A stretch of DNA of 63,896 bases, filler included, from Reclinomonas americana ATCC 50394 (GCA_048213135.1; 17 parts of 17 records of this genome joined end to end with filler, not necessarily neighbours in it); one strand, 5' to 3'; positions 5,107 to 62,578 are shown, numbered from the whole stretch's first letter. Notes: generated from the letters alone by a model not told the origin. Translations and numbers: made by a program.

Positions 5107-5206
5107 NNNNNNNNNNNNNNNNNNNNNNNNNNNNNNNNNNNNNNNNNNNNTTAATTAATTAANNNNNNNNNNNNNNNNNNNNNNNNNNNNNNNNNNNNNN
5201 NNNNNN
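5107..5206. other. Assembly gap linker (N44-TTAATTAATTAA-N44); the same linker recurs at 6338, 12858, 14362, 17394, 18820, 23323, 27300, 31149, 34595, 40241, 53855, 55103, 57143, 58347 and 62351
   Basis: Identical 100-nt N blocks each contain a six-frame stop oligo. Most are flanked by microsatellites where the assembly broke. Confidence 0.98.
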
Positions 5207-5337: not shown

Positions 5338-15165
<9,828 letters not shown>

Positions 15166-18529: not shown

Positions 18530-18576
<47 letters not shown>

Positions 18577-31505: not shown

Positions 31506-33742
31506 ATGTCGGTGAGTTGTATTGATTGCGTACGCGTGGGGGACGCTTGTCGTTCGCTTGCTTCTCTCTCCTCGTCGCTTGTCGCTCACTGCCTTTGTGT
31601 GTGTGCGACAGTTCTCTGTGAACGAGAGTGCGGCGCATGAATCATCGCTGGCGGTGGTGGTGGAGGGCATGTCGGCCAAAGCCACTCTCGCGGACCTGCT
31701 GCGCGAGGCCACACGCTTGATGCGTGAGAAGAGTGGAGATGGGGAGATGAATACTGTAGGGGTGGAGAGGCCGTGGCCCTTTGACGTCAATCTTGCTGCT
31801 GGCTGGCGTGCCGCTTGCTGCACTCGGCATCAACTCATCCACTCATCTCGTCCTCCGTCTGACACCTGGCGTGGCGCTGCAGTCTAGTGGCGAGGGGGAG
31901 CGGGAATGAGGGCGGAAGGTGTGTGCTTGGGATGTGTTGGATCACCTCTTCGCGCCAAACTTATTGCTCACTCTCGTGTCTTCGCGCAGCAACTCGGAGC
32001 GAGTGACTCGGTTTGTTTGCTTGCCTTCGTCATCCTTCCTCTCTCTCTTCCTTGTTCTTCCACTCGGACTGAGTCTGTGCTGATTGTGTTTGTGTGTACG
32101 CGCAGCATGATCAACTCGCAGCGCATCAACATGGCCTTTGAGGTGGTGGAGGAGGCCGTGCGTTGCGCTGTCAACGCGCACTGGCCCAGTTCAGTCGTGA
32201 TCATTCCGACTTTGATGTGCGGGCGTGGGCGTGGATGCAGTGACCGTGAAGGCGTGGCGTGAGCGACATGCTCCACTCCACCCCTCTCGAGTCAAGTTGT
32301 TTGAGGAGAAGCAACCGGTGATGTTGGCCTGGCGTGCTGCATTCGACGCCGACCCGTCGTCCGACCCTCTCTGTGACGGATTCGATACGACAGCACTCCA
32401 CTCAATCATGATATATGGTTGCTTTGTTGAGGATGACGGTCGCAAGCTGCTGCTGATTGACGATGCAGATGAACGGAAGGCGGTGGAGAAGCGTTGGCTC
32501 ACAAGGATCTCGTGGTGACGGACTTCAGTGTGCGGCAATACCTTGGTGATGGTGGTGTCTTCCTCTCCATCCTCTCTCGACTGCAGTTGACGGCTGACGA
32601 GCGTACTCGATTCTTTGCTCGTGTCTGCGAGGCACGTCACGCCCGTCACATCGTGGACACATTTGAGGAGCGATTGCACCGACTGGCGGTGCGTGAGCTC
32701 TCCTTCTACCAGCACGGCGAGGGTGTGCGCAAGGACACGCAGATGTATGTGCCACTGTTGTGCTCACGTGAGCGTGACGTCGCGTCGAGTGACAAGATGA
32801 CGGATCTGTTGTCGGAGGTTGATGCATTCCTCTCCGACACCAACACCACACAGCGTGTGCTGGTGCTATTTGGCAACAGTGGTGCTGGCAAGACTACCAC
32901 CATGTCGGTACTCGCCGAGCGAGCATGGCGACAGTGGCAGACGGGTGAGAAGAGACGAGTGCCTGTGCGTGTGCCTCTTGGCGCACTGCGGAATGCCGAC
33001 GAGCGATTGTTGGATGAGGCACTTGAGCGACTGTCTCCCGAGCTGGGATTCAGCGAGTCGGATGTGCGACGGTTGAAGGAGGAACCACTGTTGTTGTTGC
33101 TTGACGGGTACGATGAGTTGTACCGTGGTGTGAATCTGTTTGTCAAGAACCAGCTGGATGTGTGTCGTGATGTGAAGGTGATTATCGCCTGTCGGGAGGA
33201 TTACGCTCTGACTGTACTGGGTGGTGCGACGCAGTGTCGACGGTACTTGGCACCGGTGGATGCACGAGGACAGCTGTGCATGCAGCAGTTGATGGAGCGA
33301 CACATTGCACCGTTCAACAAGGAGCAAATTGAGGAGTACTTCGTGCGACTGGTGCGAGCAGGTGGTGATGATGAGGGTGAAGTGCGACGGTCGACTGAAG
33401 AAGAGTACATTGGCGCACTGAAGAGTGTGCATGGACTAGATGCGCTGGTGTCGAATCCATTCCTGTTGGCAGTGGTGGGTGGATCATGTTGTGTGGTTTG
33501 TGAAGCGTCATTCGTGATGCAGGTGTTTTTGTATGTTTCTTGCTGATGACATTGTTGTTTGTATGTGTGTGTGTCTTTTGTTTGTGTTCAGTTATTTGTA
33601 TGGCGGTGTGGGCACGCCTGTGCAAGTCGGCAGCACTTCGTTGCTTGCGGCCGCAGCGCAGTCATTTGGCGGAGCGGCGTCGGCTCGCGAGGTCGTCGTG
33701 GCGACGACTGCGGAGAGCTCTGTGCCTGTTGGATCATTCCAT
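31506..33742 (+). CDS. NACHT-family STAND NTPase (NLR-like), partial, with an apparent frameshift near 32490
   Basis: Walker A VLVLFGNSGAGKTT, then VPVRVPL, Walker B LLLLLDGYDE, NLF, KVIIACR, IAPFNKEQIEEY and LVSNPFLL. An ATG TCG|gtgagt micro-exon lies at 31506. The C-terminus is not seen before the gap. Confidence 0.85.
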
Positions 33743-34694: not shown

Positions 34695-37600
34695 ACAACC
34701 AACAACACAGCTGCATGATGATCACCTGAATATACATATCGTACCTGTGAAGAAAGGGAGTCTGGCAGTGTTGGGATCGTTATTCTTCAAGTGTACAGCA
34801 ACGCACATTGATTAGCACTCCTCGTCTACGACTTCAGAGAAACCCGAGTTCGAGTAACTCCACTGGAGTCTCGACACTCTATAGACTCTTGTGTCCTCTC
34901 CTTAGTCGGCCGTCAGCCGCCGCCACCACTCTGGCTACTATGGTCTCGACCTCTCGGTCTGCTCGCTGACTACTGCTCCACTGACTACCTCAAAACGATG
35001 CACCCCATCATGACACCCTTAGTCCCGCCATCCAAATCCCACAAAGTAAAGCCGAAAAGCCATGATCACCGTGCAGTCAACCGCACAACCCCTCCGTCAG
35101 GATAACCGTACTCATGCTGCCGACCACCAAGCTCACTCTCGGCACAGCAGGAACCACCCGAGCACGACTGCACGTGGCCAACAAGGAACCCGTCAGCCCA
35201 AGGAACCGTCTCCCATTACACTGATCAACGCTCGTTCCAGAACTCAATCACATGCACCCCCGTCGCGTGTGTTTGAGACGCCACCCACAGACATGATCAA
35301 CAACAGCACGTGCACCGCGCTGCTAAAGACAGACACCGACAGTGGTCACACTGCCTCGATAAGAGCTCGACAAAACCACTGACCACATCCCTCGTCGTGT
35401 CGTCCACTGAGTAACCACAAGAGCATCGCCCTCAGCACGGTCTCAGGCCCGTTGCCACTCTCGTCCACTCGGGAAACCATCACTCAATACAGTACAGCCC
35501 CTTATTCAGCTGTCAGCCACTGTGTCTGTCCCACAAAGTAGCCCGTTCTATTCCCTGACATCTCAATGACGACATGCCAACAAGGTCCTGTCCACCCACA
35601 GAACCCTGGTACGGCAATCGACCAAAACGCACGTGGCCACCCGTCGCACTATGCGTCGAGATGCGCGCTGCTCCTACAGCGTCAACAACCGATCACTAAA
35701 CCCTTCGCGATCGGCCATCAACTCCACCACGCACGGCCGAACACCCTGCCATCGATGCCTAACCGTTGCCGGCTTGACCACGCCGTCGCCAACTCTTAGC
35801 CACTCACACATCCGACTACAAAGTCAAGACAGATCCGGTCAACAGGGCGACGCCTGCGTCAACAACTCACTGCGTACCAAGCGCAAAACCATAACACAAC
35901 CGTTAAACCGACTGCAGCGCTAGCGTAGTCGATTGTTTCGAACCCTCGTTCTCTTCGCCGCGTGCATCACCAAACAGCACTCGCACACCGAGTAAGACAG
36001 GCACCTCGACACATTGAGGCAAAACAACTACCGGTCACCAGCCGATCATCGGTGGCACACTATCACCGTCGCCGAGTGCAGACCAGAACACTGAGAAAAT
36101 TAACTGCACTCTCACACTGCGTCGCTCAGCTTCCACGAGTACTGACCAGCATCAGGTACCATCTCCACAGAGGGCCGCACGCGTCAACTTGCCAGACGCG
36201 CAATCCGTCGCCAACTAGCTCCATCACCAAAGCGGCATCAATTGTCGCGAATCGACTCAAACCACAACCGCACATGGGTCACACGCCACCGTGGACTACC
36301 CGGCGCCGCGTCAAGGTTTGCCCTCCTGGCATTTTCCGCACTCGGCCACCAACGTCACACTGGTTACTCGCTCAGCATTCAATGATGCATACCAACAGTG
36401 CCGCCGAGCCTGCTGCGTGACACAGCCCTCTCCGTCACTCTCAGCGCCGCAGGTGTTTGCGACCGGCGCCGGCAATTCATCGCACCAGCCCTTCGGCCAT
36501 CTCGTTGCTCACGCGCGTCAGTAACGCCCCGCAACACCCATTGGCGACGGCACACAACCATCCCGTCGCACAGTGACGCAGCTGCGCACCAACCGACCAG
36601 CCATCCACCAGCCATCCAACTCGGCCGGTGCCAGTCTCTCTCACACACTCTCTCGACGCTGTCACACAGTCTCCGACCAGACACTTCCAGGTACCAGGAC
36701 GACTGCCTCCCTCACATGACGCATCGACATCTAAAGTGTGTTTGCCCCAGCAAACAAAACCATAATGGAGGCGAGTGCGCACCGCGCGCACCGCACCACT
36801 CACGCCAACCGACGTATATACGTGCACGAAGCTCGGTACAACACCGTCGCGACGACAACAAACGGTCAACAGCAGCCAAATGCTCGACAACAGCAGAGCA
36901 CTGACTACAAAGTGGACGCAAAAGTGACACTGAGCAATGCCGCGCAATCAAAACGGTCCCGTCACTCAGCCAAGCATCGCGTTGCCACCACGCCAACTGT
37001 GGCTCGTCCACAAGTAACACCGCACAGACCGTGCTGTCGTCACTCTCACCCTCACACGAAAACGCTGGCACTGTCAACTGTCATACAGCGAGGACTACAC
37101 GAGCACTCGACGCAAAAACCTCATCCACGAGTCAGGCCCGGACACTCCAGCGGCCACAGACCAAGCCCAAACAAACAAACGCGCGCACGCCGCCGACACC
37201 GCAAGAGGGGGCCCTCCACCACTGGAGGTAACAAAACGTGCACCCGAAAAAACATCGGTGGTGTCAACACAACACTGCTGCTCTATCATAATCCTTCTCA
37301 AAGCTCGCAGCCAGAATGCACGCACTGCGTGAACTGGTTTCTCCGTCGCCAACCGGACATTCGTCGCGTACCGCGAGACACAGTCTCCGCCAGCGATGAT
37401 AGGCGCTGAACGGCACCGCCGAAAAATACAGCCACAAGCAGCCCACGTACAAAACTCTGCACGCGTGGGAAGGTATCACGGTCTGGCCAAGCATCGCCCA
37501 CACACCAGTCCGACAACATGCACGTGCACAAAGTCGACTTCCATTTTAGACATCTCAGTCTCATCAACAGGTTGCCGCCACACGGCAGCAACTGCTGTCC

Positions 37601-39078
37601 ACAGTACAGCCACCGCCGACCGAGGTTGGACGCAACACGGTACATAAATGTCGTCGAAAGTCACAGTGGTCGACCAGCACAAGCACACAACGACAGCCAT
37701 ATTGAGACTCGAGCATCCACCTCGCATTCACCAGCCGACGGTGGACGCTAACAGCGTACCGATCACGCGTCGCAGTCGCTCAGGTTGACCATCAGTAAAC
37801 ACGCCTTCTCGCTCAACGGCGCGGCAGCAACAGGACCTCCAAACACGCCAGCGGCAATCCACACCACACATGGCACACAAATCTGAACATGGCGTCGTGC
37901 GAGCACGCGGTTCAGGCGCACAATGCCGTGGATACTCAAGGAGAAAAACACGCCACCACACACTGCATGACGCTGGCATAATCGGCATAATCCAGATCAC
38001 ACGAACCCACGCGGCCTAAACCCTCCAATCACATTGTGGTTGTTTTGCGAAACCGTCTGTGGCACAGATACCCTGTCGCCACTCACACTTGGTCAAATGA
38101 CATGGTTCAGAGCACCATCGTCCCGGCTCGCAAAAAGAGGCTGCTGGAACACGGAAAAGCGATTGGCAGCCACACACTCCGAAACTCAAGCAATGGGCAC
38201 ATTCTCCACCATATGCATGGCAGTCAGAAAAAACACGCATGTGCGATACGTCGAGGATTTCCACTCAGAGCAACGCACTCTCCGGCTTGCCGCTAATCCT
38301 TCGCGACATCCGAGTCATCCACGACCAATGCCGCCGCCGCGTTCCAGCGTCACACCCAGCTCAAGTTTGCCCAGAGCAAGAACTCCCAGTACTGCCGGTG
38401 CCAGCTACACGCCGGCGCAACGCACATCCAAACACAATCGCTCGACGACAACAACTGTCGAGCTGTGCCACTGCACACGTCGTGTCCTCATAGTTAGCTG
38501 GGTGTGTCCCATAGATCACACCCTCTGCCCGTATCCACGCCGTCGTACATCGAACACTGCCGCTCTCTCTCCACTCGGGAAAAGAGGTACGCAAAAACAT
38601 CGTCGACGGTAACGTAGTCGTACAGATGCCACCTTCCATGTGCCTCCCCACACCGTGCGCAACCAAGCAACTCCACAGGCGGCAGGAGGTCGGTGTCAAT
38701 CCAGCGCAGGGCTACCGCAGGCAACGATTACTCAAAACACATCGTCACCCTCAACAGTGAAAAACTAGCAGCCCAAACGATCTTCTCCCAGAGGCTGGGA
38801 TCTCCAACGACCAATGTCAAAATCAATGCTGCTGTGCTCCGACACCGCAATGATGCATGCGCATTCCCAGCGCGCAGTGACGAGCAAATGTGGGGAAGAA
38901 ATTTAAACTGCCATCCAGGTTCCTCCTCCGATGAGGCAGCTTGACCTCTCCTCCCCGAGTACGTCAATTAATTGCAAGCACAAAAAGCTCCTTTACATGG
39001 GTGCCATCACGGTTCCTCCTCCAATGAGGCGGCTCGACTCCTCCTCCGCCGAGTACATCAATCACAAGAAAGTCCTCC
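34695..39078. pseudogene. Unidentified decayed coding-like/intronless DNA (host of the transposon insertion; continues at 53245-53854)
   Basis: It lacks microsatellites and has a strong C/A (+) versus G/T (-) strand skew. Only short broken ORFs are present. The same ~55-bp repeat occurs on both sides of the transposon. Confidence 0.35.
38908..39060. repeat. Two copies of a ~55-bp repeat; a third copy is at 53268-53315
   Basis: TGCCATC..GGTTCCTCCTCC(G/A)ATGAGGC(A/G)GCT..AC.CC.CC occurs at ~38909, ~39002 and ~53268. Confidence 0.9.
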
Positions 39079-39102
39079 GGACCCCGGAAGACCGCGACCC
39101 AG
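39079..39102 (+). repeat. Left terminal inverted repeat
   Basis: 24/24 match to the reverse complement of 53221-53244. Confidence 0.95.
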
Positions 39103-41088
39103 GATCCCACGCTCATTTGGCGGATTCTGCCGGAAAATGCCCGGATTTCCCCCGTCCTGGATTCAGTTGTCGCAGTGTGCTCAGTGAGCAAACTCCCACC
39201 TCTCTCCTCTCCCGTGGAGTGGCGCGACCTCTGAAGTGCACCACCTTGGAGAACTCACTGTTGCGCACCAGGTGCGCGCGCTGTGGTTCCCTCTGGCAGT
39301 GTGTTTTGTGGTGCATTGCCATTTTTGGTCATCTCCAGGGGGCATTTGCCGTGCATGCTCGACGCACAGTCGCTTGTTTGCCCTCCTTTACAGCAGAGTG
39401 TGTGTGGGAGTTTATGTTCCACCCAGTGAACCGCGAACACAGGCGTGTGGTGTTGTGCTTCTCGAGTTCTTTGATGTGCAGTTGCATTGTCGGACTTAGT
39501 CGTTTTTTCGCTCATCTGCTGAACGCAAGAGAGGGAGAGGCCAGAGGTTAAGTGCGACGCAATCCGGTGGTGTCACGAAGGTTTCTGTGCCAAAGAGTGC
39601 GGAATCCCTCGTGATTTCATGTAATCCGCTTACATCCAGTTGGACACCAGGGATTACGCACCTCGCTTTCAGAATCCGAGGGATTCCGCCGTGTGCGGAG
39701 CGCGCCGCAGCAGCCCGTACTACCGGCCGCCTACCACCACCACCGCACACCACACGCCCCGCATTTGTTTGTGCCAACGAGTCATGCATTCATTCATTGA
39801 CATTCAATACTCTCTGCATGCTGGGGCGCAGGCGCAAGCAGCACACGGTGGCCGCCATGTCCACGTTGGACGTGTATAGGCGCCCTCGTGCTGGCGTTGC
39901 TACGACAGCCTGGGCACACTTGCCGTGCCCGCGCGCAGCGAGAATCGTGGAACAGGCCGACCATGGTCGCCGCTCAATCTCAGCGACGGCAGAAGCCGAT
40001 CGATTGCGCACGGCCAGGTGGGAAGAAGTCATTCTGTACGAATCGTATGAGCAAATTAGTTCAGCAACAGTGTACCGTGCGAGCTCATCCTCACGCGCAT
40101 GTACAAGTAGCCAAGCACATAGAGCGACAGATAGAAGAGAGAACACACACCCACACAGGCTGCGACACACAGCAAGAGACGACGAGACAGGCAGCATACC
40201 CAACCACCCACGCAGGCTGCGACACGAGACAGACAGCATANNNNNNNNNNNNNNNNNNNNNNNNNNNNNNNNNNNNNNNNNNNNTTAATTAATTAANNNN
40301 NNNNNNNNNNNNNNNNNNNNNNNNNNNNNNNNNNNNNNNNGAGAGAGAGAGAGAGAGAGAGAAGAGACGACGAGACGACGGTATCGCGTGCAGGAGAGCG
40401 ATCACAACACACAATAACGCAACATCAACTGTGGGCCTTGTCCATCCTCGAATGCAGTCACGCCCAGCTGCAGGGCATCCACCGGTGCCAGCCAGCTGCA
40501 TGCGCAGAGAACCCCTGCAGTAGAGGAGCACACCATGAGAGTTGCATCGACTGCTGTCCCAATGCGTTGGCACGTGATTTGACATCGACTTACCCACATC
40601 ATCAGCTTCGCCTGGCGCAGCTGCAGAGAAGGGGCGACAAAGCAATGTGTCAGTGTTGGCGCCAACTCCACACACAAACATGCATTTCACTGCGCGCGAA
40701 CATCAAAACCTCTGCACCCCTTCTCCTGCAGTGCACAACCACACACACACAGAGTTGCAATCACACATGCACACGCGTATGCTCACCTGCAGAGAATGCA
40801 GCCTCCGTGCGAGCCACAGGTGCCATCTGCGCCTTGCATATGTGCACGCGCGTCAGTTGGAGTCGCGTTTCTGCGTGCAGATCGAAGACACAGCAACAAG
40901 CTCACGCACTCGCAGCCGGTACCACGAGTGTCGCTTTCACACCACGCTCACAGGCCGAGCGCGCTCGATGCTTCCGGCCACATGGGTCGCGCGCGTGATG
41001 CTTTCTCACAAAGCACAAACAAGAAGCGGATATCCGACGCGAGCGGAGTGCGACAGACGGATCTGTCACCAGTGTTTGTCCCTCCTCA

Positions 41089-42115
41089 ATGAGCTCCAGC
41101 GAGAGTGGTGCCGAGTCGCCCAGTGAGTGCCGTTGCAGTGCGTGTGCGGAGCAAGCACACACGCATCGTCGACCGCGAGAAGTGAAGTATGCGGGGGAGC
41201 TGTGGACAGAGCTGGCGTACGTCAAACACGTACTAGGTGCACACACTTGTCTGTGAGGGAGTGTGCGAGTCTCCTCTCAACCTTTCTGTCGACTGCATAG
41301 GTCAGCAAGTGATGTGCCTCGAGGATGCGTACTCAACGAGCGCTTCATCCGCACTCTCTGGCGCTACTACGGCTTTCACGGCACGGGAAGAACGCTCGAT
41401 TCGGCTGATTTGCCAGTCGGAGATGGATACCTTCTCTCGCACACACCGACCCCGCGCCTCACTGCATAATCTGCCGAGTGCCAGCATCGGTTCGTACCCG
41501 CTGCGTGTGCAGTGACCGTGAAGTTATCTGACCAACGAGGCGTGGTCATTATTGCAGATGCAAGTGTGCAGACAGTAGAGACTGAGAGCTTCGCGTCGCC
41601 CCCCGCACCTCCACCCTCCAGACCAACCTGCTCGAATCGGCTGCTCCTCCGAGATCTCACTGGCCTCAAGTCTGGTGTCGTCAGTGTGCGTTGCGTGTGA
41701 TTCCAAGTGTGCCCCTCACACGAATTTGGCAATAACAAGCGTGCAGGTGGCGACGGCAGCAGCGCTTTGTGAGGCGCTGAGCGCCGATGTTGCCTTTGGA
41801 GCCACCACGAAATCTGGTGTGCACCACCTGCAGTTGCTGCGGGAGTCCAGAAGCAGAGTTGTCGACTGTCTCCGCCTCGCTCTCCAACGATGTGGTGCTG
41901 CTTCGAGTCGCGATTTGACGGACGATGTTCTCTTCCAGCACGCGAACGAGACGCTCGTCAACCGCCGCCGTGAGCTCTCCGCTCAAGTACGAGCAGCCGA
42001 GAAGCAGGGCCTGCCTCTCAGCGACGTCAGACGTCGTTTCATTGCTCACTGGCAGAGTGTCGCCGCGAAGCATACTCGGCCTCAGCCGGCGATTGTACGA
42101 TCTCCAAATGAATGA
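41089..42115 (+). CDS. Transposon accessory protein A (spliced; C-terminal helical, possibly BEN-like domain)
   Basis: In-frame exons: MSSSESGAES...YVKHVL | GQQVMCLE...PSASI | DASVQT...KSGVVS | VATAAALCEAL...LTDDVLFQHANETLVNRRRELSAQVRAAEKQG...HW...stop. The start codon is uncertain. Confidence 0.6.
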
Positions 42116-42623
42116 TGGCTGCACTGAGAATCGTGTCTTCCTTTGAGTCACAGTGGCAAGTTAGTGTTGGTCGCTGATTGACGCTGAGCCACTGATGGGA
42201 AATGATTAATCAGTGGGTTTTTGCGGTTGGCCGGTCGAGTGGAAAATTTCTGGAATGTATTCCTCCGCAGCTCCTCTCCCACTTGCACTACGACCCCAAG
42301 CAAGCATGCTCCCCACTCAGTGAGACATGCGGTTTCCAGCGCACTTCGCCTTTTTCTTTGTGCCCTTCAGGATCACGAAACAGGGTCGAAGAAATGCTTT
42401 GGCCGACTTTGAGTGCAAACTCCAAGCAAATTGACTCAGATTCTGCGGCTGGAGCACGTTTCACGTCGTTTTTGTCACGAAACGACATGAGAATACGTCA
42501 GTACCGACCTTAACTTGTTGCAGGAATGAAGCATCACGCAAGGCCCTTGAAGATGTCGCGGAAACGGACACAGCGATCAATAACAGCTTTTTTTGTCATG
42601 AACTGATATCATGATGCTTTCAT

Positions 42624-45600
42624 TCAGTGGTCCACACATTTACACGCCTCAACAAGACACACGTAATGGGCGGTGCCTGCACCCGCGATGCTGGACGTGT
42701 CTGCACCGAAGCCCCAACCATACAAGTCGCACTGATACGATGCGGGCTCATCGAATTTTTTGATAATGTCGGAAACTTGTCGCGGAGGTCGGCGGCGTTG
42801 TTCATTTGCGTTCTCTTTTTCAGAGAGAGCCCACCGATAAACCTGTTGTACAAACAGCCATTAGTGTGCACGCGCGAACGATGACGAGACCCACAAGACG
42901 CATATCAAGGGAGTTTCGATCGGTCTGCTCCCCTCTGATCGCACACACAAACTCACATCCTCCAGCTTCTTTGTTCGGAAAAAGAAGTCGTCGAGGCTCA
43001 AGGTGGCAGCCGCGGCATTGCCTGTGAGCACTAGAATTCGGAGTGCGCGATGCGCATGGCAGTGAGTGATGGCGTAACATGACAATCAACAAGGCAACAG
43101 CGACGCACAGCCAGCCAGCAAGTCCGGTCGACGTGGGTGCACGATGCAAGCAGGCGAGCTGAGCGGAAACAGTAAACAGTGCCGCCGGATGAGCGACAGA
43201 GGAATAGCGATGCGCAGTGGACGTTGACTGCCACAAAAGTTGGGCGAAGTACTAGTGGGTGGCACGCGAGCGGGGTGAATGTCATAATAGACACCGACGC
43301 CTAGGCGCTCAGCAAGTGCTGCGGCGATGCGGTCGGGATCACGATCACCCGGCTCGCCGACGGCGCACTGGTGGAACTCGACGATGGCGTAGCAGTTGAC
43401 GAGTGCAACCACGGACTTGCCCTTTTTCGTTCCACGCACCACCGCGCACGAGTCAGCGAGAAGTGGGAACTCCCTCGCCGCTGCCAGTGTGTCGTCGAAG
43501 CGGTTCTGGTCAAGCTTCCCGTCAACCTCAAAACGCAGTGGCAGTGCAACCAGCGAAAGCACTTGTGCGGGACCAACTCGCCTCGTCAGGGGGTTGACAG
43601 CCATGACGGAGGAGTTGTTAATCCTCGAAGGTCGCAGCCCAGCATCAGGAGCACCGGCATCCAGTGGTGAGACTGAGAGCTGCTCAAAACCGCAGCCCGC
43701 AAGCGCACTCCTGCCTCGGCTGATTGGCACCGACAGTTTCATCCGCCGAACAAGGAGAGCACGCACTGGGTGCAAAGCGTGTGACTCCTTGAGGCGGTGG
43801 AGGATGCCTTCGCGATAGGTGTCCAGATTTCTCTGCACCACCGGCGCAAAATGCCGACAGGTGGCATCGGCAATGAGGCGGAGAACCTCGACGCCCTCGG
43901 CCGTCGCTCCGTCGGCCTGCCCTTCCGCACCGGAAAGGACAACTGAGGAGCGGAGAAACGTGGAATGCAGTGGCTCCACTGAACCCGGAATCGTGACCGA
44001 GACACGAGGCAGCAGCGCGACGGCGTGCTCTATCAAGGAGCAACCGCCGGGATCGCGAATGGCACTCGACAGTGGGTGTGCGTTGGCGCAGAACAGGGAC
44101 ACCAGCGACTGCCAACTGTCTCGAAACTCCGGCGACTCGGCAGCTGGCGATCGGTAATCACCGTCACCGTCGTCTACGCCAAGTGGCTGCAGTTGACCAA
44201 ACGCGTTCACCGTGGCCTGCTCGTCAGCCAGCTGACGCACGGCGGTGATGATGTTCGAATACACAGCACTTTCAATCTGGCGGAACTGTGCTGCCGACAG
44301 ATCCGAGCGGCTGGAAGCCACAGTGTCGATTTCGCGGCGGACGGTGGTGTTGGCAGAGATCAGGAGCGCGCCGTATGTGGCCATGCACCGACGAACAACC
44401 AGCCACTCTGGCAGGCGAGTGGAGCGGATACCGCGCATGAGCGTGCCGTAGACTGACTCGGCACTCCATGTGGAGCACGATTTCGCACTGCCGAACAACC
44501 GCACGGCTGAGGAAATGTCGTGCAGTCGCTCGTGAATGCAGTATGCGACGTTGGCTGGCAGAGAAAAACAACACGGTGAGAGAGGGAGAGGATGAGTCAT
44601 CAGCAGTGGAACGACAGACGGGACGGTGCGTGTGCGAGCCTTGAAACATACCTGAGCCTGTCAATCGTTCAAACTCGGCGACAATGTCGTGGATGTCAGC
44701 CTCCAGCTCGCCAAGCTGGGAGCGGCGAACGACTGCCGAGTTGACTGTCTTGCACCAGCGCGCGTACCGCCAAATAAGCGATATGATTGCTGGCTGCGCA
44801 ATATCTGCGGTCAACATGCTGATGATTTCGTACAGCGCGAACCTCGTGTCAGACGCTGTAAGTCACAGGCGATGAGCGTTGTGTACACCGAATTTGCAAA
44901 CACAAAGCACACTGTACCTTTCCGCAGTGCCATGTGGCATTTGGCATCTACCGATGGCAGATACTGCGCGATGCAACCGGGCGCAATGAGGGATTGCAGT
45001 CGGTCGCCAACTCGAGCTGCGTCCTTGTCGCTCAAGAGAAAGCCTACTCGGTTCAACGGCCAGTCGTCCGGATCCGCGACAACTGGAACCTTGTCGATGA
45101 CATGCGACGGCGGATCTGGAACGACCTCTTGACGGTCGTTCTCATCAGCTGAGAACGCAAAACCGACCAGTTCGTCTCGCAGAGGTGCGGCGGCGGCACT
45201 CCACGGCGACTCGTCAGCGGCCGCCACCAGCGAAACATCTTCATCGTCTGTCGACTCAGAGCCACTCTCCTCCGACGATCGCGATGACTCTGTGTCGGTG
45301 CTGTCCTCGTCTTCGACAGAGTCTGCGGCAGCGCTGCGTGGAGTAGTCGTGTCCGTACTGGATCCAGCTGCAGTTGAGCCGTGGTCGTCACCAGCACGAC
45401 TGATCGTCCTCTTGCTTTTCTTCTTCGTCTTCTTCTTCTTCTTCTTCGATCGCTTATCCCGCTTGCGATCAAACAGGGCGCTGAGCAGCTTAGAACCGGC
45501 GCCGATCACTGCGCCATGCATCTCCTCGGTGGGGAATGATTGTGTGAGATCGACCGATCGCAATTTCAAGAACCTGCGTGACAAGAAAGGACCAATCGTG

Positions 45601-48551
45601 AGCCTCTCGCAAAGACTGCGGTACTCAAGTCACCACAGCGAGGGAATCAGAACGCACTCGTTGCTTGACTTTGCCATAAAGGTCTCGTTTTGCGGCAGAT
45701 TGTTGAAGTCTGCCAGGGTGATCATTCCCTCCTCCAGGCGACGACGGTGTGCCATTGAGAGCAGGACGTCAGCTTCTGTTCGCAACTTGCCCACTCCACG
45801 GTATGTTGTGGTGCCAGTCGCGTGCATGTGCTCTCCCTGCACGTCGCAGTACATGCAGCCATTCAACGCAGGAACCTGTCAGATGAGCAAATGCAGGAGT
45901 GAGTCAACTGATGAGCGACTGCTCGTGCAGTGCATTTGTGGGACTTGTCTTCTTGTTCTCACCTGTTTGATACCGAGCATCTGAGCACTGCATACGATAT
46001 AAGAGAGTGAGCATATATGTAACTAATGGAGCAAACATGCAGAGTCAAAAACGAACCGTGCTCGCCCGTCACCGGTGATCAACAACAGGTCGAGAGACCA
46101 CTCTGCAAGACGAAAGCCTGGATGGCTTGCGCAAAAGGAGGCCAGATCCCGGCGAAGCCGAGAGATGTCGTCGTTGCAGACGGCGGGTGGCTGATACGGT
46201 GGCTGATCCAAATCACCCACTGACTCGGGTTCCACGAACACGGACTCTGCGAGGTAACAGGTTAGCTCTATTATGAAGTTGCTGCCAGACAAACAAACAA
46301 CTATGATCGACTCACTGTACTGGAGGCAGGCCAGTTCGTCGATCACTGGCTTGAGCGCGACATTCAGGTCGCGCATGTGGCCTTGAGTGATCAACACAGG
46401 CAGAAACAGGCCAGGAAGTTTTGCCAGAGTTGGGTGGATTCCAGGGAAGAAAATCGACCCGACGCCGATAGAGTGTGACTTGCGCTTGCCGTAAGGGTTC
46501 ACGCCATCAAAGGTGAATCCCAAAGGCACTGATCTGTTGTCGCGAAAGAACCCAGCAGACTGAAGAGAACGGTATCTGTCGCCGTCGAAGATGCTGGACA
46601 TGCGGTCAGCAGCCGGATCGTCTCGCAGATCGGGCGGCGGCGGTTGTGTCTGCCGGTTGACGAACAGTGGGGCGAGGGTCTCTTGCATAAGCAGGCCTTG
46701 GAATGCTGCGGCCACCGAAAGTGTCCAGAAGCGGAATCGGGGAGCGACACGCGATTGGTCACCCACCGCTTCAAAGAGCGGAGCTCGACAGCGTGGATCC
46801 GGGCACTTGCCACTGGGTCCCGCTGCCAGGTCCTCCCAGCTGCACTCGTCTGCATCGAGTGACACCAGCGATTCGACGCAGTTGCATACACAGCACGCCG
46901 TCCACGTCGACAGCGGCGGGAAGCAGGCCTTCACAAGGCCATACAACCCCTTCGTGCTCGCCGGGATCACGTTGAGCGCTTCACCGCCTGGCACGAATCT
47001 GAGAATGTTGCACACCTTCTGGAAGCCTGTCTCGTGAATGCCGCCGCCGTGCAGTTCTTTCAGGATAAGAAGCGCAACAGCAACAGGAGGCAGGCCGGCG
47101 CTGCATGCGGAGTCGGCAACATCAGCGTCAGCAGCAGAAAGTATCTGCCGGGAACGTGAAGCCGCTCCACGCTCCGCTCGCCGGCCGTGATCATCCAGGA
47201 CTCCGTGCACGGCTCTCGCCATTCTCGCGACTGTGCGCTGAACTGTGGAGCAAGTCGACCAAAAAGTAGCGGCTGGTGAGTTTCAACGCGTCACATCGTT
47301 AGCGCCGACCATTGTCTGCATTGTGACACACCGTCAACGGCCATTTTTGGTGGGACGACCGAGCAGCTGTGTTGCTGTCGACGATGCTCGTGGCTGTCGA
47401 TTTCCATGTCAGCACCTCCTTCCCACAATTGATCCACAGCGACGTTGGCGTCATCTTGCTTCTGTGACGCAGCTCCATTGGCACCAGCTGCGCGAGAAAG
47501 AAGTCAGTCAATGTACCCATCAAAAGATCAACAGTCGGCAGATTCACTCACGGTTATCCCACCAATTTTTGAAGCGCCGGTAAGCAGGCGCGCTTGTCCG
47601 TTCACCAACAAGCCGCAGCGCATCAGCAAGTGTAATCTCGCCTTGCATGTGCTCGAAGAGGTGAATCTCCCACTCGTCGCTCTTCGCAGGATTCTCGTCG
47701 TCCACCAATAAAGAGGCACCGCACTCCGGAAACGGACACGACATAAACCTCCCACCACGACTGCGAGATCGAGCGAAAGCTGCCTTGGTAAGCGGCGCAG
47801 GATGCACCTCTCGTTCTGCACTCCATCGTATGCCGTGAGACTGCAGCGCAAGAGGGAGAATACAATGCCAGGACGCGACATGGGCACTCACCGTCACTAC
47901 CTGCTGCGTTTTGCAAGCGAGCAAGCGAATCAATGCGGCCAGCAACTCGTTCAGCGTCGCGTGCATCACGCTCAGACTCCAGGTGGTGGTGTTCGTCGTC
48001 AGATCGTGGCCTTTTTTGTCTCAGCCGTGCCAGGGCAGATTCGAGAGACTGAGCGGGGAAGGCATGCGTCCACCTCCCTCTCTTGAAGCCGTGGTCAGAT
48101 GAAGACCGAGAACGCGCCGCATGCTTGCCACCTCGAGAGCGTCGTCCAAAGGCCGCGTATCTCACGGCGGCGTCGGCTTGCGCTGCATCGCGCTCTTCGG
48201 CTTCTCTCGTCAATTCTATACACGGGGTGAACTGCAGTCGTCAGTGCAATCGACGTAGGATTCAGCACACATATGCACACGCACACGTGTACACACACGC
48301 TCTCTCTCTCTCTCTCTCTCTTTCTCGTACTCACGTGTCGCAAACTCCGGGTTTGCGAATGAGTGATCCACGGATTGTGATCGACCACCTGGTGACGGTG
48401 CCGGACGTTGCGCCAGCCGTCGGCGGGGACGCCGAAAGTCACCGCTCTCGTCCTCTTCACTCTCCGCGTCACTGGACGCGAATGGCTGGCCAGGGAGGCG
48501 GCTTTCACCTGCACGATCACGGTGATCATGAGAGTCATGTTCGTAGGTCAT
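42624..48551 (-). CDS. CMC/EnSpm-type DDE transposase (Transposase_21-like), multi-exon
   Basis: Motifs: CPFPEC..HLFEH (zinc-finger-like), CCVCNC..CPDPRC, MSSIFDGDRY, LGFTFDGVNPY, LKPVIDELACL, ITGDGRAR, GCMYC (C2C), EEMHGAVIG (MH), HERLHD (H3H) and FGSAKSCSTWSAESVYG (catalytic E). These match the CMC signature string. The 5' exons and the last two exons (43021-42624) are inferred from splice phase. Confidence 0.9.
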
Positions 48552-49295
48552 GCTGGTGATGCATCATCACAACGTACCCGTCATCCATTGGTCGTTGAAA
48601 AAGCGAGAGTTGGGCCGACGAGCCCTCTCAGAGGGTGGCCGCATTGGAGGACGACTAGAGGAACCAGAGCCGCTCGCAAGCGAAGCTGAACCATCGGTGA
48701 TGTCCATTGCCGATCACGATTGATGAGCACGTGTGGTGTTGACCGTGCGCGGCACACGTGCACCACGCTGTGCGCGTTTGTGCGCCAAGTGGGTGAGAGA
48801 GCGTGTGTGTGAGAGTCTAAGTGTGTACTCCGTGCGTGACGAGAGCGACGGAGATCGAGAGAAAATGCAGAGTTTGATACTCAACTCCATGAAAAACACC
48901 GATTCAGCAAGCAGCGTCACGCACGTGCGCATGCTGCTTGCCTCACATTGCGTCGTTGGCACACGAGACGCTCCCCTGTGTCGCGGTTGTTGAGTCGTTG
49001 CAAGTCGACCGCCGATTCAATCGACGAAATCTGTAACACGCACACTCGCAATAGACCGCGCATCACACGCCTCACGTGACTAAGAAGCGTGTTGTGCCAT
49101 GCGCTACGCATTTGGCGTTCACATCGCCCGTGTGTGCGCAACATCCCGACTCGGCAACGAGTGCACATTTGTTTTTTCTGCTGTGAGAGAGAATGTCAGG
49201 CAGTCGTCACAAGAATCGTGGTTCAGCCATGGTTAAAGCGGTCGCCGCAAGCGGGCGTCACGCCAGCACTGCCGGCGATGACCGTGCCCGTGCGC

Positions 49296-51596
49296 ATGAC
49301 CAAGCAGCGGCCGCAGAGTGTGCGTGTTACACGTCCTTTTTTTGTTGCTGGCGACCAACTGCTCACACACTCCTCAGCGAAATCTCGCAGTCGCCGCCGT
49401 TCTAAAACAGCAGATTCTTCACCACCTCGGCGTTCACGCTCAGCATCTTCGCCCGGGCGCGATCGCCATCATGGGCACCGCGGCCGCCACTCAACGGCGA
49501 CGAAGAAGAGAGAGAAGGCTGACTCTGACGCAGACTCGTCGGTTTGCGAAGACAACCACTCGTCGGCGCCGGCTTGTTCACCGACGTCGGGTGTAGTTGG
49601 CTCACGGAAGCAGACACAGCAGCAGGTGCGTTGTGGTCGGGATAATCGAAATGAGCATGATTGTGTGGACAGAAGCACGCGCGGTCGCATAGAGAGTACA
49701 CGAGTGGGCACGCACGCATGTAGGCCCTCGCGAGACTAACTTGTTGTTGCCGCTTTGTCGCCACAGCACCACGAAGCGCCCTGCGACAACGGTCGACCTG
49801 GTCCCGGTTCTGGAATCGGTGAGGCAGCACGCTCAAGCGTGCCTCCGCCACCGCTGTCGTCGCTGCTGCCATCCAGTGCGACGATTCCTGCGGTGTCCCA
49901 GCTTCTGTCGCCCAACATGGTGACGACCGCCGGCACCCAGTGTTCGACTGCGCCATCTGCGTCAGCTTCGCTTTCCTCCACCGTCTCCGACACCGACATC
50001 ACCGCAGCAGCCGGCGCCACGACAACACGGCACAGCCCGATGAAACCACCAACGCCCTCGAATTTGACGCCAGATCCGGGAGCGTGCGCAGTGCCGTCAA
50101 CGACACATCTTGGCACACTCGTGCTCCCGTCACTGCCGGCGGCATTTCATCAACCGTCGACACTTTCCTCATCATTGGGCTCCCCGTCGTCCCCGGTGGT
50201 GGGGCAGCCTTCGTGGCAGAAGGAGCTGGTCTGCATATCCGGGTCCGCGTCCACGCTTTCGGGCGGCACTCCAAGTGCGAGCTCGATATCTGCCATGTCG
50301 TGCGGCAGCACGCCGGGGTCGGCAGCAAAAAGTTCCACCTGCCCACGACCAGCGCGTCCGCCGCCACGAGATGACACACCGCGGAAGTTGACTTACCCTG
50401 CCGACGCCTACGATTCGGAAAGCAGCGGTGAGTGGTGACTGCGCCGCAGACTGCCAGTTTGCATGATCTTTTTCTGATAGAGGCGACGACAGAGACTCGC
50501 GGTCGCGAGCCCACCGCCCGCCGCCGCCGTGGAGACAACGATGACCAGTCCGACATGCTTCGACAGATAATGGAGACGCTCCAAAACCTGGCCAAGGGTG
50601 AGTTCCTGTTACACGTGCAGGTCTATTCAGATCTGCTCCGTGAATTCTCATTCGCACCCACGCGCACAGTGCAATCGCGTACACAAGACAAGGGTGCCTC
50701 CAATCGAGCATCGCAATCTCGTTCTCGTGACCACGGTCGAGACAGTGATCGCCTGTCTCAGCGACGCCGTCGGAGCAAAAGCCGGAGCGCATTCGAGAAC
50801 ATGTCTAGCGGCGATTCAGTGACATCATCGTCGGAAGATCGCGAGAGGGTGAGTTGGATCGATGCTGCAAAAAGGGCACACGCACGCGCTGTCTCCGTAC
50901 TGATCGATCACATTCGTAAATCTCTGCAGGATTATGAACGCACTCGAGCGCGCGAGTCGGATAAGCATGATAGTCGCCGTCGTCGTCGTCGACGCCACTC
51001 GGTTGATGAGCGTTCAAATTCATCTGGCGCCGAACGCAGTGCCAGCACCGATGACAGCAGCGATGAGGATGCGCCGCCACGCAAGCGCCAAAAGCACGTG
51101 CAGGCCCGATCTCGGAACAACTCCGCGTCGTCGGTCGTGGAATCGTTCTCCAAGTCCAAGATGACGGTAAGTGGATGTGTGTCTGTGTTCTCGGCTCGAT
51201 CGTGTATTACTGAGCTTGCGATTGACACTTCGCATCCCGCACACACGCGCACAGGCTTATCTGGCGCAGGCGACCTTCACCGTTCTTGGAGAAGATCGCC
51301 TCATATCTGGCCTGCACGCTGAGGCCGATAAAGCAGATTCGACGGTGAACGACATGACCAACGTTCGTCGCAAGCTCGATGACAAGGTGCTGATGGCGCT
51401 GCTCCCATACGTTGGGTGCTCGGAGGACCAGCTGCTCAATGACGAGAAACTGAAGAATCGGGTCGAGGGCTTCCTCGACACTCGTCGGAAGCATGTTAGA
51501 ACGGAGATCCGTGAGGCGCGAAATCGTGGGGACTCTGAGCCCAACTTCACCAGTCTGGTTAAGAAGTGGCATCGCCAGACGGGCATTCGGCGTTAG
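49296..51596 (+). CDS. Transposon accessory protein B (Ser/Arg/Pro-rich, C-terminal BEN-like helical domain), divergent from the transposase
   Basis: A chain of GT-AG exons ends in AYLAQATFTVLGEDRLISGL...RRKLDDKVLMALLPYV...LKNRVEGFLDTRRKHVRTEIREARNRG...KKW. An NLS-like PPRKRQK is present. The start codon is uncertain. Confidence 0.7.
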
Positions 51597-51671
51597 AGGA
51601 GAGACAGCAAGACAGATGTTGGGCAGATCAATATGTATACGTATGAATGACAGAGAGAGAGAGAGAGAGAG

Positions 51672-53091
51672 AGAGACAATCGAAGAGACAGTTACAGGCA
51701 GACATAGCGACAGGGAGAGACAGTATGCATCGATTCGGAGTGTTGGGAATACGACGTTTACATGTATCAATATACACGCACAACACCCCGCGACACATCA
51801 TCTGCCTGCAGACAAGAATGAAACAACACGCCTGGCCGCTGAAGATCTCGGCTCCTGTCTTCGGAAACGGACACAGCGGAACGTTAACACCACGGCTTGC
51901 TTGTCATGCTTGGTCCACGGCGACACGTGCACGCATCAACAGGAAACGTGTGCATACATTCGATGGGCGGTGTGCAGTACGTATACAGTGCAGCACAGCC
52001 ACTCTACTGCTCCCTCCCAAGCACGCTCTCTCTCTCTCTCTCACACACGCGTAGTACACGGCGCGCAAACACGCGCATCACATACATGCAGCCACTCTCT
52101 CTCGCTCTTGTGTCACACACAAACACACACACACACGCAAGCTCCTCCCCTTTCTCTCGCTCTCTCACTCCTTCTCGCACTCGCCCAGGCACTCGTTCAG
52201 GCACTCGCTCCTGCCTTGCTGCAACGACAACAAGACAGCCAATATAATGTACACAATTGCACACGAAGCGCACGCTCTCTCTCTCTCTGCACGTGCGAAT
52301 CAGCTCCCAGCGCACACACTGCTGCACAGACAACAAGACGCACCACGCAACGGGCAACAACCCTCGCGGGAGCACGTCGGTGCAAGAGAGTAAAGCAAGT
52401 GAATTTTCAAGATTCCCGTCGCTCTTCTCCACTTGCGTCGTCTCCGCGCGCTCGTCTTCGTGTGTGTGCGTGCGCTTGTGTTGTGTGTCGCTCGAGTGTG
52501 CCAGAGTAAGTTCTTCTGTGCATGTGTGTGTGAGGTTGTCCATGCACTGCAGCACTGGGTGCCGACATCCGTCATCTCACGCACTCGACACTCGCGGTGG
52601 CCTGTGCCGCACTGAGAGGCCGTATGGATCATCAGGGTACGCGTGAGATGCCACACACACGCATCGCAGCAGTGCGTGTACAGTGGAGTAGAAGAGCATA
52701 GACTTTGCTTGTTTGTTTGCAGACACCATCAGCAGTCACGCGCACCGAGTGACAGCTGCAGAGAGTGAGTGTGTGTGAGAGAGAGAGAGAGAGCGAGTGG
52801 CGGCCCGCCCACCCACCCACATCCACACAGGATAGTGCGAGAGAGACGCAGAGAGAGAGAGAGGCTGATGCATGTGTCCTTGCAACCGTGCTGCTGATGA
52901 TGCTCTCAATGAAGGCTGTGACTGTGAGCGCTTCGTGCACCCAAGTCAGCATGGCTGACGTCTGAGTGGGAGAGACGACCAGAGAGTCAGTTCGACTCAG
53001 CGAGAGTGAGAGACATGGGTTCGGAGTGTTGGGAATGCGATAATTAGCAGTGTACACTGCACAACACCGCGCGACACATCATCAGCCTGCA
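51672..53091. repeat. Diverged direct repeat pair (~51672-51810 and ~52971-53091) inside the transposon right arm
   Basis: Both copies share the blocks TTCGGAGTGTTGGGAAT and GCACAACACC.CGCGACACATCATC.GCCTGCA, starting at 51734 and 53020. Confidence 0.85.
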
Positions 53092-53220
53092 AACCGCTCT
53101 CTTCTCTCACCGGATGCATGAAGAACGTCCACCAACTGCCGGTCCCAAAAGGCTGCGATCGTGCAGAAATGCGCGGAAAACGACGGAAAACCTGCCCGAC
53201 AGTGCGGAATCCGAGGTTTG

Positions 53221-53244
53221 CTGGGTCGCGGTCTTCCGGGGTCC
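53221..53244 (-). repeat. Right terminal inverted repeat
   Basis: CTGGGTCGCGGTCTTCCGGGGTCC is the reverse complement of the left TIR. Confidence 0.95.
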
Positions 53245-54361
53245 ACATGTACATGGGGGAGAAAGACTGCCATCACGGTTCCTCCTCCGATGAGGCAGCT
53301 CAACCTCCTCCCCCATGCACACTAACGACGCAAGCGGCTGACTCACGGCCAAGTATCGCTCCGAACTGCCGTGTGAGTGTGTCTCTTTCGGCGACAGACA
53401 AGAGGGGGCTCTGGCGCCTAAAAAAGGTCGCCACCCAACAATGTCGCCTATTCCCCCAAACAACGACCCGTGCCCCGCAGAGCATCGTTCACGCCACGCT
53501 GCCACTCAGCTCTACGCAAGCTTACGGTCAGCGACACAGCTAATCCAACAAAGGTAGCGCCGTTGTACACAGCTCAATGTCCCACACTCAGTCCAACAGC
53601 GTGATATTTGCGGTCACATCACCGTCAGCCCAAGTCACGCGCGACACATGGTTCATCACTACCCTGTCGGGCTTGACCGCGCTCGGACACACCATCGTAA
53701 AGACGTTGCCGGTGGACTTCTCCACAGCATAGTCAAGCGAGCCACGCCGCCCGAACACGGTGAACACCCACTTGCTCAAGAAAACACATCCCTCGCACAC
53801 CAGCCAAGTACGGCGGCCCTCATCGACCTCACTGCCGTCCCCCCACTCGCGTCCNNNNNNNNNNNNNNNNNNNNNNNNNNNNNNNNNNNNNNNNNNNNTT
53901 AATTAATTAANNNNNNNNNNNNNNNNNNNNNNNNNNNNNNNNNNNNNNNNNNNNTTGCCCCTGCGGGAAGTCGCAGAATTAGCCTGCCACGGCTACTTGG
54001 TAACATCCATGTTTAGCACGATCTTTCACGATAGCACGCGCATAAGCGCAGTCCAAGCCCGTTGTAAACGGTTTAGCCTCAGACTAAAGTGAGATACTTC
54101 GCGGACTTGGTTTTTAGTCTTGTTCTATCCAGTGTAAGACCGAGGATAAACCAAGGCAAAAGAAGACTATTCATTTAGTTCACTTTGAGCTCACAAGCAG
54201 AATTAGCCTGACACAGTCTATTGTGCAGAAGCTCAGTCTAGATCAGCTGTGCTACTTGGCGATGCAGCCTTTTGTGGGGAAGCTCTGTTTAGGTCGGCTA
54301 AAAGACTTAGCGAAAAAAGGACGCATCCATCGTCAACAAGTACGGTGCAGAAGGGCTCTGA

Positions 54362-57100: not shown

Positions 57101-57741
57101 ACTTATGATCACTCCGCTTCACACAATCACTCCGGATCCGTTNNNNNNNNNNNNNNNNNNNNNNNNNNNNNNNNNNNNNNNNNNNNTTAATTAATTAANN
57201 NNNNNNNNNNNNNNNNNNNNNNNNNNNNNNNNNNNNNNNNNNGAAGGGGAAGAGAAGGGGAAGAGCATGGGGGAAGAGCATGAGGGGGGAGGATGGGGAA
57301 GAGCATGGGGGAAAGAGCATGGGGGAAAGAGCATGGGGGAAAGAGCAAAGGGGAAGAAGGAGGGGAAAGAGCGAAGGGGAAGGAGGGGAAAGAGAGGAGA
57401 AGAGATGAGCAAGAGATGAATAAGTGGGGAAGCCCGAAAGGGGGAAGCGAAGAGGGAAGCGAAGGGGGAAGCAAAGGGGGAAGAGAAGGGGGAAGAGAAG
57501 GGGGAAGCAAAGGGGGAAGAGAAGGAAGCGGAGAGCGAGGGAAGAGATGAGCAACAGTGAATAAAGAGTGGGGAAGCCCGAAAGGGGGAGACCAAGGGGG
57601 AAGACCGAGAGTGAAAGAGAAGGGGGACGAGCAAAGGGGGAAGAGAAAGGGGGAAGAAGAAGAGGGAGGAGCAAAGGGGGAGGAGAAAGAGGAAGGGGAG
57701 AGAGAGAGCTTCGAAAGCCTCTCCCAACAAACGCAACAGAC

Positions 57742-62350: not shown

Positions 62351-62578
62351 NNNNNNNNNNNNNNNNNNNNNNNNNNNNNNNNNNNNNNNNNNNNTTAATT
62401 AATTAANNNNNNNNNNNNNNNNNNNNNNNNNNNNNNNNNNNNNNNNNNNNTGTGTGCGTGTGTGTGTGAGACATTTTCCACAAACACAAAACACACAAAC
62501 GCAAAACAAAAAAACGCATTCCGCGTGCGTGCGTACCAGCGTGGCCCAGCTACGCAGCATCGACTGCGCAAACAACAT
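60086..62578 (-). CDS. psuG/psuK: Bifunctional pseudouridine-5'-phosphate glycosidase / PfkB-family pseudouridine kinase fusion (part of the N-terminal domain is in the gap)
   Basis: PsuG/IndA motifs: LQSGMVVAVPVP, IEKAIAQALEEA, GREVTPFLLGRVNELTKGASLAAN, LIHNNARVG. PfkB motifs: GVGRNISE, LLSAVADDLYG, VVLDAN, KGNEME, STTGAGDSL. A putative first exon lies at 62578-62537 across the gap (inference). Confidence 0.9.

Follow-up and report, generated by a model that had tools for sequence, protein, structure and literature searches.

Positions 39079-53244 of the window (the whole stretch of Reclinomonas americana ATCC 50394 DNA that was analysed; 63,896 nucleotides (nt), composed of 17 parts of 17 records joined by filler and not necessarily neighbours) probably represent a single class II insertion that carries a spliced, CACTA-Mirage-Chapaev (CMC)/tnp2-like transposase gene together with a divergent second gene (gene B). 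As judged from its sequence, the element appears to be a real, very divergent CMC-like DNA transposon; since removal of five introns leaves the transposase reading frame uninterrupted, the copy looks young and is probably autonomous, and it may be presumed to be mobile. According to the proposed model, a cut-and-paste transposon would have inserted once into a short array of an approximately 93-nt repeat, with perfect 24-bp terminal inverted repeats (TIRs) as the ends that its transposase would recognise. A minus-strand gene of six exons would encode this transposase, a DDE-type protein of about 1,330 amino acids (aa) and distant kin of the tnp2 proteins of En/Spm (CACTA) elements within the CMC group, putatively equipped with a finger-like N-terminus, the acidic motifs DGxxPYG and GDG, and one motif each of the C(2)C and H(3)H type; gene B would be transcribed divergently from it, and its product may, by analogy with TNPA, bind the element ends or regulate the element. 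The candidate last exon of a further proposed gene, gene A (exon A_e3), may encode a helical domain similar to that predicted at the end of gene B.

The element spans 14,166 nt and is delimited by an inverted repeat pair of 33 nt with 88% identity (left, 39079-39111, plus strand; right, 53212-53244, minus strand), the outer 24 nt of which (39079-39102 and 53221-53244) are identical at all 24 positions; the perfect 24-bp TIRs claimed in the original prediction, a reading of the same DNA, were borne out at 39079 and 53244. Just two matches to the 24-nt sequence were present in the window when up to three mismatches were allowed, and none was obtained in 100 dinucleotide-preserving shuffles. The left flank (38907-39078, plus strand) contains two units of the approximately 93-nt repeat (aligned cores 38907-38955 and 39000-39048), the element being inserted within the second of them, and a further unit follows in the right flank (53245-53314, plus strand; unit at 53266-53314, 86% identical to the reference unit). 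As both flanks consist of units of one repeat (80-86% identity for the two left units and the one right unit in the repeat search), they fit a single insertion; the repeat was detected by this general repeat search alone and was not reported by Tandem Repeats Finder. The heptamer CGGAAAA occurs in three copies within 70 nt of the element ends (14 in the whole window) and constitutes a weak signal there. The viral contigs searched contained no exact match to the TIR, and no related locus was found in the metagenome contigs or viral contigs searched.

The tentative transposase gene (43086-47744, minus strand) was delineated by its spliced frame, by its similarity to the Pfam family PF02992 and by a relative designated P0001. 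It comprises six exons (47744-47552, 47272-46053 or 46041, 45875-45634, 45573-44918, 44855-44652 and 44554-43086), separated by intron 1 of 279 nt (GTGAGT..CACCAG), intron 2 of 177 or 165 nt (weak donor GTTTTT or GCATGT, acceptor ..GACAG), intron 3 of 60 nt (GTGACT..ACGCAG), intron 4 of 62 nt (GTACAG..TTACAG) and intron 5 of 97 nt (GTATGT..TGCCAG). The spliced model has a length of 1,328 (or 1,332) aa and contains no internal stop, all five introns being of the GT/GC-AG type. In the genomic DNA, minus-strand open reading frame (ORF) pieces follow each other in succession (48020-47547, 47282-46026, 45878-45633, 45629-44814 and 44660-43089), and minus-strand frame 1 is interrupted by six stops in 1,399 codons, compared with 35 and 41 for the two remaining frames. 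Since the lengths of introns 4 and 5 are not divisible by three and both introns shift the frame (exon 44855-44652 lies in another genomic frame), splicing is required and not merely tolerated. Codon usage chose the sense frame of every transposase exon in leave-one-out tests, and the large exons exhibited a period-3 signal of 5.7-7.8. Judged by these properties, the transposase looks apparently intact and spliced, in agreement with the spliced minus-strand CMC transposase that had been claimed: a multi-exon minus-strand gene with tnp2-like similarity was found inside the TIRs.

Different explanations of the interrupted genomic frame were considered and rejected. Of the 13 in-frame stops that separate the ORF pieces, 12 are TGA, which raised the idea of a recoding of this codon; the excess is at background level and results from the TA-poor DNA, since TCA accounts for 88 of 105 stop triplets on the minus strand of this region. 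A pseudogene with nonsense mutations, an idea prompted by the location of all large ORF pieces in one genomic frame, is the less simple reading, as canonical introns clear all stops and two of them shift the frame; as regards intron 2, a pseudogene is still conceivable. Throughout the window TA is strongly depleted (plus-strand stop triplets: TGA 1007 of 1530, TAA 293, TAG 230); in consequence, long open frames are frequent on both strands, and ORF length by itself is weak evidence for a gene in this DNA.

The 419-aa core ORF of the transposase matched PF02992 (tnp2) with E=1.5e-4 and 21.5 bits over residues 242-325 (cut-off 28.6). When 1.84 billion representative proteins were searched exhaustively with HMMER, one relative was recovered (P0001, E=6.6e-30), a protein of 361 aa with 31% identity over residues 67-326 that forms a singleton cluster and originates from a 9.7-kb contig; P0001 itself matched the same region of the PF02992 model as the window protein with 28.5 bits (E=1.1e-6; cut-off 28.6). 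The tnp2 scores of the two proteins appear consistent with each other, both being sub-threshold. The spliced model contains DGVNPYG (position 320) and TGDG (464), with CMYC (478) as its C(2)C and HERLH (846) as its H(3)H motif, the catalytic residues being putative assignments. Its N-terminus (47744-47649, minus strand) exhibits a finger-like C-x4-C-x19-H-x3-H pattern that is recognised by no Pfam family and could be a zinc finger; further features of the protein are a lysine/serine/acid-rich insert and, towards the C-terminus, a long part that contains the H(3)H motif. For the C-terminal exon, the nearest entries in the ESM Atlas were eukaryotic hypothetical proteins (0.93), with DUF6830 (19% of members) and DUF4218 (20% of one cluster) as family leads only; the stretch that follows HERLH is presumably similar to the DUF4218 core found in CACTA transposases of plants. 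In the near-length range, the word-based protein search gave no match for exon 3 of gene B or for the core and C-terminal exon of the transposase, and sequence searches against the PDB yielded nothing notable.

Gene B, a likely accessory gene of the element, is located at 49278-51596 on the plus strand and is tentatively composed of four exons (49278-49703, 49767-50427, 50481-51166 and 51255-51596) that together encode 704 aa without a stop. Its introns of 63 nt (GTGGGC..CACAG), 53 nt (GTGAGT..GATAG) and 88 nt (GTAAGT..CACAG) have acceptors that are each preceded by a pyrimidine-rich tract; introns 2 and 3 change the frame, and the last one (51167-51254, GTAAGT..CAG) is of phase 0. The last exon (B_e4) gave the clearest coding signal outside the transposase (period-3 of 6.17; GC by codon position 0.65/0.40/0.65; codon score +0.137 per codon). 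Within the element, the period-3 signal peaked (9.0) at 49740-50435, a region shared by three overlapping long ORFs; two of them are on the plus strand, and the third, on the minus strand, is broken by two stops. The last two exons of gene B are the best supported ones, exons 1 and 2 being less safe. The product is mainly low-complexity and Arg/Ser-rich with a C-terminal domain of about 110 aa that is predicted to be all-helical; neither a domain nor a homologue was detected in Pfam scans, the ESM Atlas or the word-based protein search, and the helix-turn-helix cro/C1-like clusters obtained for B_e4 in the ESM Atlas (0.85) are a lead at most.

Several observations weigh against the proposed insertion of a CMC-like element and have to be set beside the evidence given above. 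At its ends, no target-site duplication of 2-5 bp is present (left flank ..GTCCTCC; right flank ACATGTAC.., starting with ACA); it may have been mutated away, with one copy to judge from. The termini read 5'-GGACCCC..GGGGTCC-3', i.e. GG..CC and not CA..TG, and subterminal repeats are absent, no 8-12-mer reaching four copies within the outermost 700 nt at both ends. One copy was seen, the remainder of the window containing no related DNA, and a scaffold gap (at the linker 40241-40340) lies within the element. With respect to the transposase, the donor of intron 2 is weak in either form, the third and last catalytic acidic residue was not assignable in the spliced model, the PF02992 score of the window protein itself remains under the curated cut-off, and no other exon or ORF of the element matched any transposase family in Pfam (10, 99 and 6 ORFs scanned). 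As for gene B, the position-specific model favours other frames in exon 2, and the open chain with up to three introns reaches 719 aa, which is barely above the best control (antisense 620 aa; 24 control pieces, in which the median chain had 493 aa and the longest 697 aa).

The original prediction had placed two spliced plus-strand genes beside the transposase; this is tentatively upheld for gene B, with its stop-free 704-aa model and consensus-like donors (GTGAGT, GTAAGT), and was not established for gene A, where the chain is at chance level and coding signal is confined to the last exon. This candidate exon, A_e3 (41747-42115, plus strand; 122 aa), displays a period-3 value of 2.27; the 95th percentile of 69 length-matched non-coding windows was 2.08, and the median of the transposase windows 2.83. 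Its proposed frame was the best of six in the position-specific model (+0.071), a score similar to those of transposase exons. A 61-codon model assigned −0.029 to the sense and +0.016 to the antisense strand, scores which favour the latter and make the plus-strand assignment of A_e3 tentative. The proposed upstream exons (41312-41489 and 41558-41679, plus strand) showed no coding signal (period-3 of 0.73 and 0.34). The open three-exon model of 222 aa is no better than chance: open chains with up to two GT-AG introns in the gene A region attained 248 aa in sense and 246 aa in antisense direction, and chains of at least 222 aa were present in 14 of 32 control pieces. Several donors fit the phase-0 CAG acceptor of A_e3, the 222-aa model using the phase-0 donor GTCAGT; as a result of these alternatives the gene A model is loosely constrained, and gene A is a doubtful accessory gene.

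If A and B were paralogues, the element would be a three-gene transposon with a duplicated accessory module, both proteins sharing a C-terminal helical domain for DNA binding or regulation. We consider this reading unlikely, and the paralogy that had been claimed was not established by the comparison of the two last exons. They do align, with nine identities in a core of 32 residues and a Smith-Waterman score of 45 (shuffled sequences 27.4±4.9; 27 of 5000 shuffles reached 45), while reversed sequences gave 33 and 61 transposase windows of 120 aa gave maxima of 32 and 33; among 551 other ORFs of the window, A was the first-ranking match of B (45, followed by 44, 42 and 41). Yet the best unrelated ORFs attain similar scores (44-51), B ranking third for A behind two of them at 51 and 47. 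BLASTP yielded a single match between A and B (E=1.9) in another stretch of seven residues and not in the alignment that had been proposed, and tblastx of the A and B regions found the TIR alone. Since the pair was picked by eye, its single-pair p of about 0.005 requires correction for the number of pairs inspected, and on sequence the similarity is borderline. Further points in favour of a common origin are the coding-like composition of both exons (+0.071 for A_e3 and +0.115 for B_e4), period-3 values that both exceed the null percentile, and phase-0 acceptors 56 (A) and 60 (B) residues upstream of the aligned core. Against it stand the deficient upstream exons of gene A, the chance-level chain and the antisense preference of the codon-usage model described above. 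The phase-0 intron that had been placed at an equivalent position in both genes is present in gene B; in gene A this holds for the acceptor, to which several possible donors can be joined.

Single-sequence AlphaFold models of both exons were all-helical and of low confidence (predicted local distance difference test, pLDDT, 64.5 and 54.8 for A and B, respectively); in these models the order of helices would be the same, a helix of 28-29 residues ending at the aligned Gly and the last helix holding the aligned Trp, which speaks for paralogy. Foldseek returned no match at E<=0.001 for either model (best E 1.7 and 3.4). The best Z values of VIA-align (7.0 and 6.9) are below the noise level that the tool states for helical models; the matches were mostly bundles of the TetR C-terminal type, and 3cjd, 5ojy and 8tkp were common to both lists, all of them below noise. 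The BEN-type fold that had been suggested for the shared domain thus found no support in Pfam, PDB sequence, Foldseek or VIA-align comparisons: neither BEN (PF10523) nor DUF4806 was matched by the two last exons in Pfam at E<=1, nor by any ORF in the scans of 10 and 99 ORFs, and no BEN entry occurred among the Foldseek or VIA-align matches listed. The BEN domain is small and all-alpha, which the predicted all-helical nature of both exons would resemble; it differs in that no sequence match exists here, and the models are too uncertain to exclude the fold. Neither exon has a known homologue with which a profile comparison could be made. The anti-silencing role that had been suggested for the pair would be purely hypothetical.

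Rather improbable, in our view, is the possibility that gene B, and A_e3 if it is real, are fragments of captured host genes (transduplication) or no genes at all. It would explain why neither has a homologue or a domain, why B is largely low-complexity and ambiguous in the frame of exon 2, and it takes into account that open GT-AG chains are easily built in G+C-rich, TA-poor DNA. It is opposed by the consensus-like donors of gene B (GTGAGT, GTAAGT) and its acceptors behind pyrimidine tracts, by the coding signal of B_e4, the strongest outside the transposase, and by the head-to-head arrangement of B with the transposase start at a distance of about 1.5 kb. We would likewise give little credit to a more far-reaching proposal, namely that the element is the founder, still autonomous, of a new lineage bordering on the CMC group, with GG..CC termini, no or an unusual target duplication, and a duplicated helical A_e3/B_e4 module for end binding or regulation in place of TNPA. 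If true, the duplicated accessory module would be a new kind of transposon-encoded regulator, for which the one borderline alignment is the basis.

The reading of a single inserted transposon also depends on the continuity of the assembly. Sixteen linkers of the form N44-TTAATTAATTAA-N44 (e.g. 5107-5206, 6338-6437, 12858-12957 ... 62351-62450) divide the window into 17 contigs of 1.1-13.5 kb. The ends of the contigs are mainly microsatellites, e.g. (GA)n, (CA)n and (GACGAC)n. One linker, 40241-40340 (unstranded, same form, true size not fixed), falls within the element and separates its left end, with 1.16 kb of the interior, from the next contig, which holds the three proposed genes and the right end; in consequence, 14,166 nt is a minimum length. 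The linkers look like scaffold gaps and not like arbitrary joins, and we think that the contigs flanking linker 40241-40340 are true neighbours, because the same low-complexity repeat or microsatellite runs on across several other linkers, because the 15-mer AAGAGACGACGAGAC, which is present in the window at 40174 and 40362 only, brackets this linker (66 nt before and 22 nt after it), and because both outer flanks belong to one approximately 93-nt repeat. A scaffolding chimera, in which contig 34695-40240 with the left end and contig 40341-53854 with the body and right end would stem from two family copies inserted in the same type of repeat, is very improbable: it could account for the linker that separates the left end from all else, for the missing target-site duplication that would tie the flanks together and for the length of the repeat unit rebuilt across the insertion (about 100 nt, not 93), but order and orientation correspond to a single element, both ends share identical outer 24 nt, the flanks continue one repeat array in register, the window-unique 15-mer encloses this linker, and other linkers lie inside continuous microsatellites. 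Any feature of this window that crosses such a linker carries the same gap caveat.

Outside the element, the window contains further coding and repetitive regions. An ORF at 32473-33543 (plus strand) exhibits a NACHT NTPase domain (PF05729, E=4.6e-10, 40 bits) and is presumably a host gene of the STAND type. Long plus-strand ORFs with right-handed beta-helix repeats (PF13229) are located at 21060-23318 (E=3.6e-12, four stretches) and, with a weak match (E=0.002), at 15971-17182; an ORF piece on the minus strand at 60089-60541 matches PF00294, the PfkB family of carbohydrate kinases, in its C-terminal part (E=3.2e-17) and probably represents a single host-gene exon. Tandem arrays of satellite-like type occur at 2547-3181, 18559-19024, 28732-29219 and 57246-57704, the array types comprising a 32-nt period, a 13-nt period of the CTTCCCCCTTCCG type, units of 78-86 nt and a 12-13-nt period of the GGGGGAAGAG type. 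No Rfam family was matched anywhere in the window.

Among known systems, the single-insertion transposon proposed here can be compared with the En/Spm-type elements (maize En/Spm, soybean Tgmt*), which, in the passages available from PMC2613891, are described as TIR-bounded elements with a multi-exon tnp2-type transposase and a poorly conserved second protein; the En/Spm protein TNPA is stated there to bind the ends and to regulate the element. On the basis of these passages, the likeness consists in a large (8-20 kb) TIR-bounded cut-and-paste element with a tnp2-type core and a putative second, unconserved protein. The element of R. americana differs in having GGACCCC.. instead of CACTA termini, in that neither a 3-bp target-site duplication nor reiterated subterminal motifs were seen, and in a tnp2 similarity of just 21.5 bits; moreover, its second gene is separate and divergent, whereas the second protein of En/Spm is, as far as the excerpt describes it, the product of an alternative splice form of one transcript.

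In a survey of 2025 (PMC12730594, excerpts), C(2)C followed by H(3-4)H is given as the common mark of the CMCT clade, and most of its elements are said to have 5'-CA..TG-3' termini. In the tentative spliced model, the motifs CMYC (478) and HERLH (846) downstream of TGDG (464) and the sub-threshold tnp2-like core may agree with such a clade; the GG..CC termini deviate from the usual CA..TG (PMC12730594). The target-site duplication of 2-5 bp that belongs to CMC/CMCT transposons is not seen either. With one relative in 1.84 billion representative proteins, the placement of the element in or beside CMC is tentative. A transposase so far from the described families (one relative, sub-threshold tnp2 similarity) would broaden the known range of CMC.

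To our knowledge, intact autonomous DNA transposons have seldom been documented in protists. In the coccidian Sarcocystis neurona, CACTA-Mirage-Chapaev elements are, according to the portions available of PMC4337577, the commonest DNA repeats; the same portions report that no transposase gene was detected in them and term them ancient and degraded. Within the limits of this account, the likeness lies in the unicellular eukaryotic host and the difference in the open transposase frame found here, no link between the two being claimed; as judged from the Sarcocystis neurona result (PMC4337577, in part), an open CMC-like transposase is not to be taken for granted in a protist. If it is mobile, the R. 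americana element would be a candidate genetic tool for its host.

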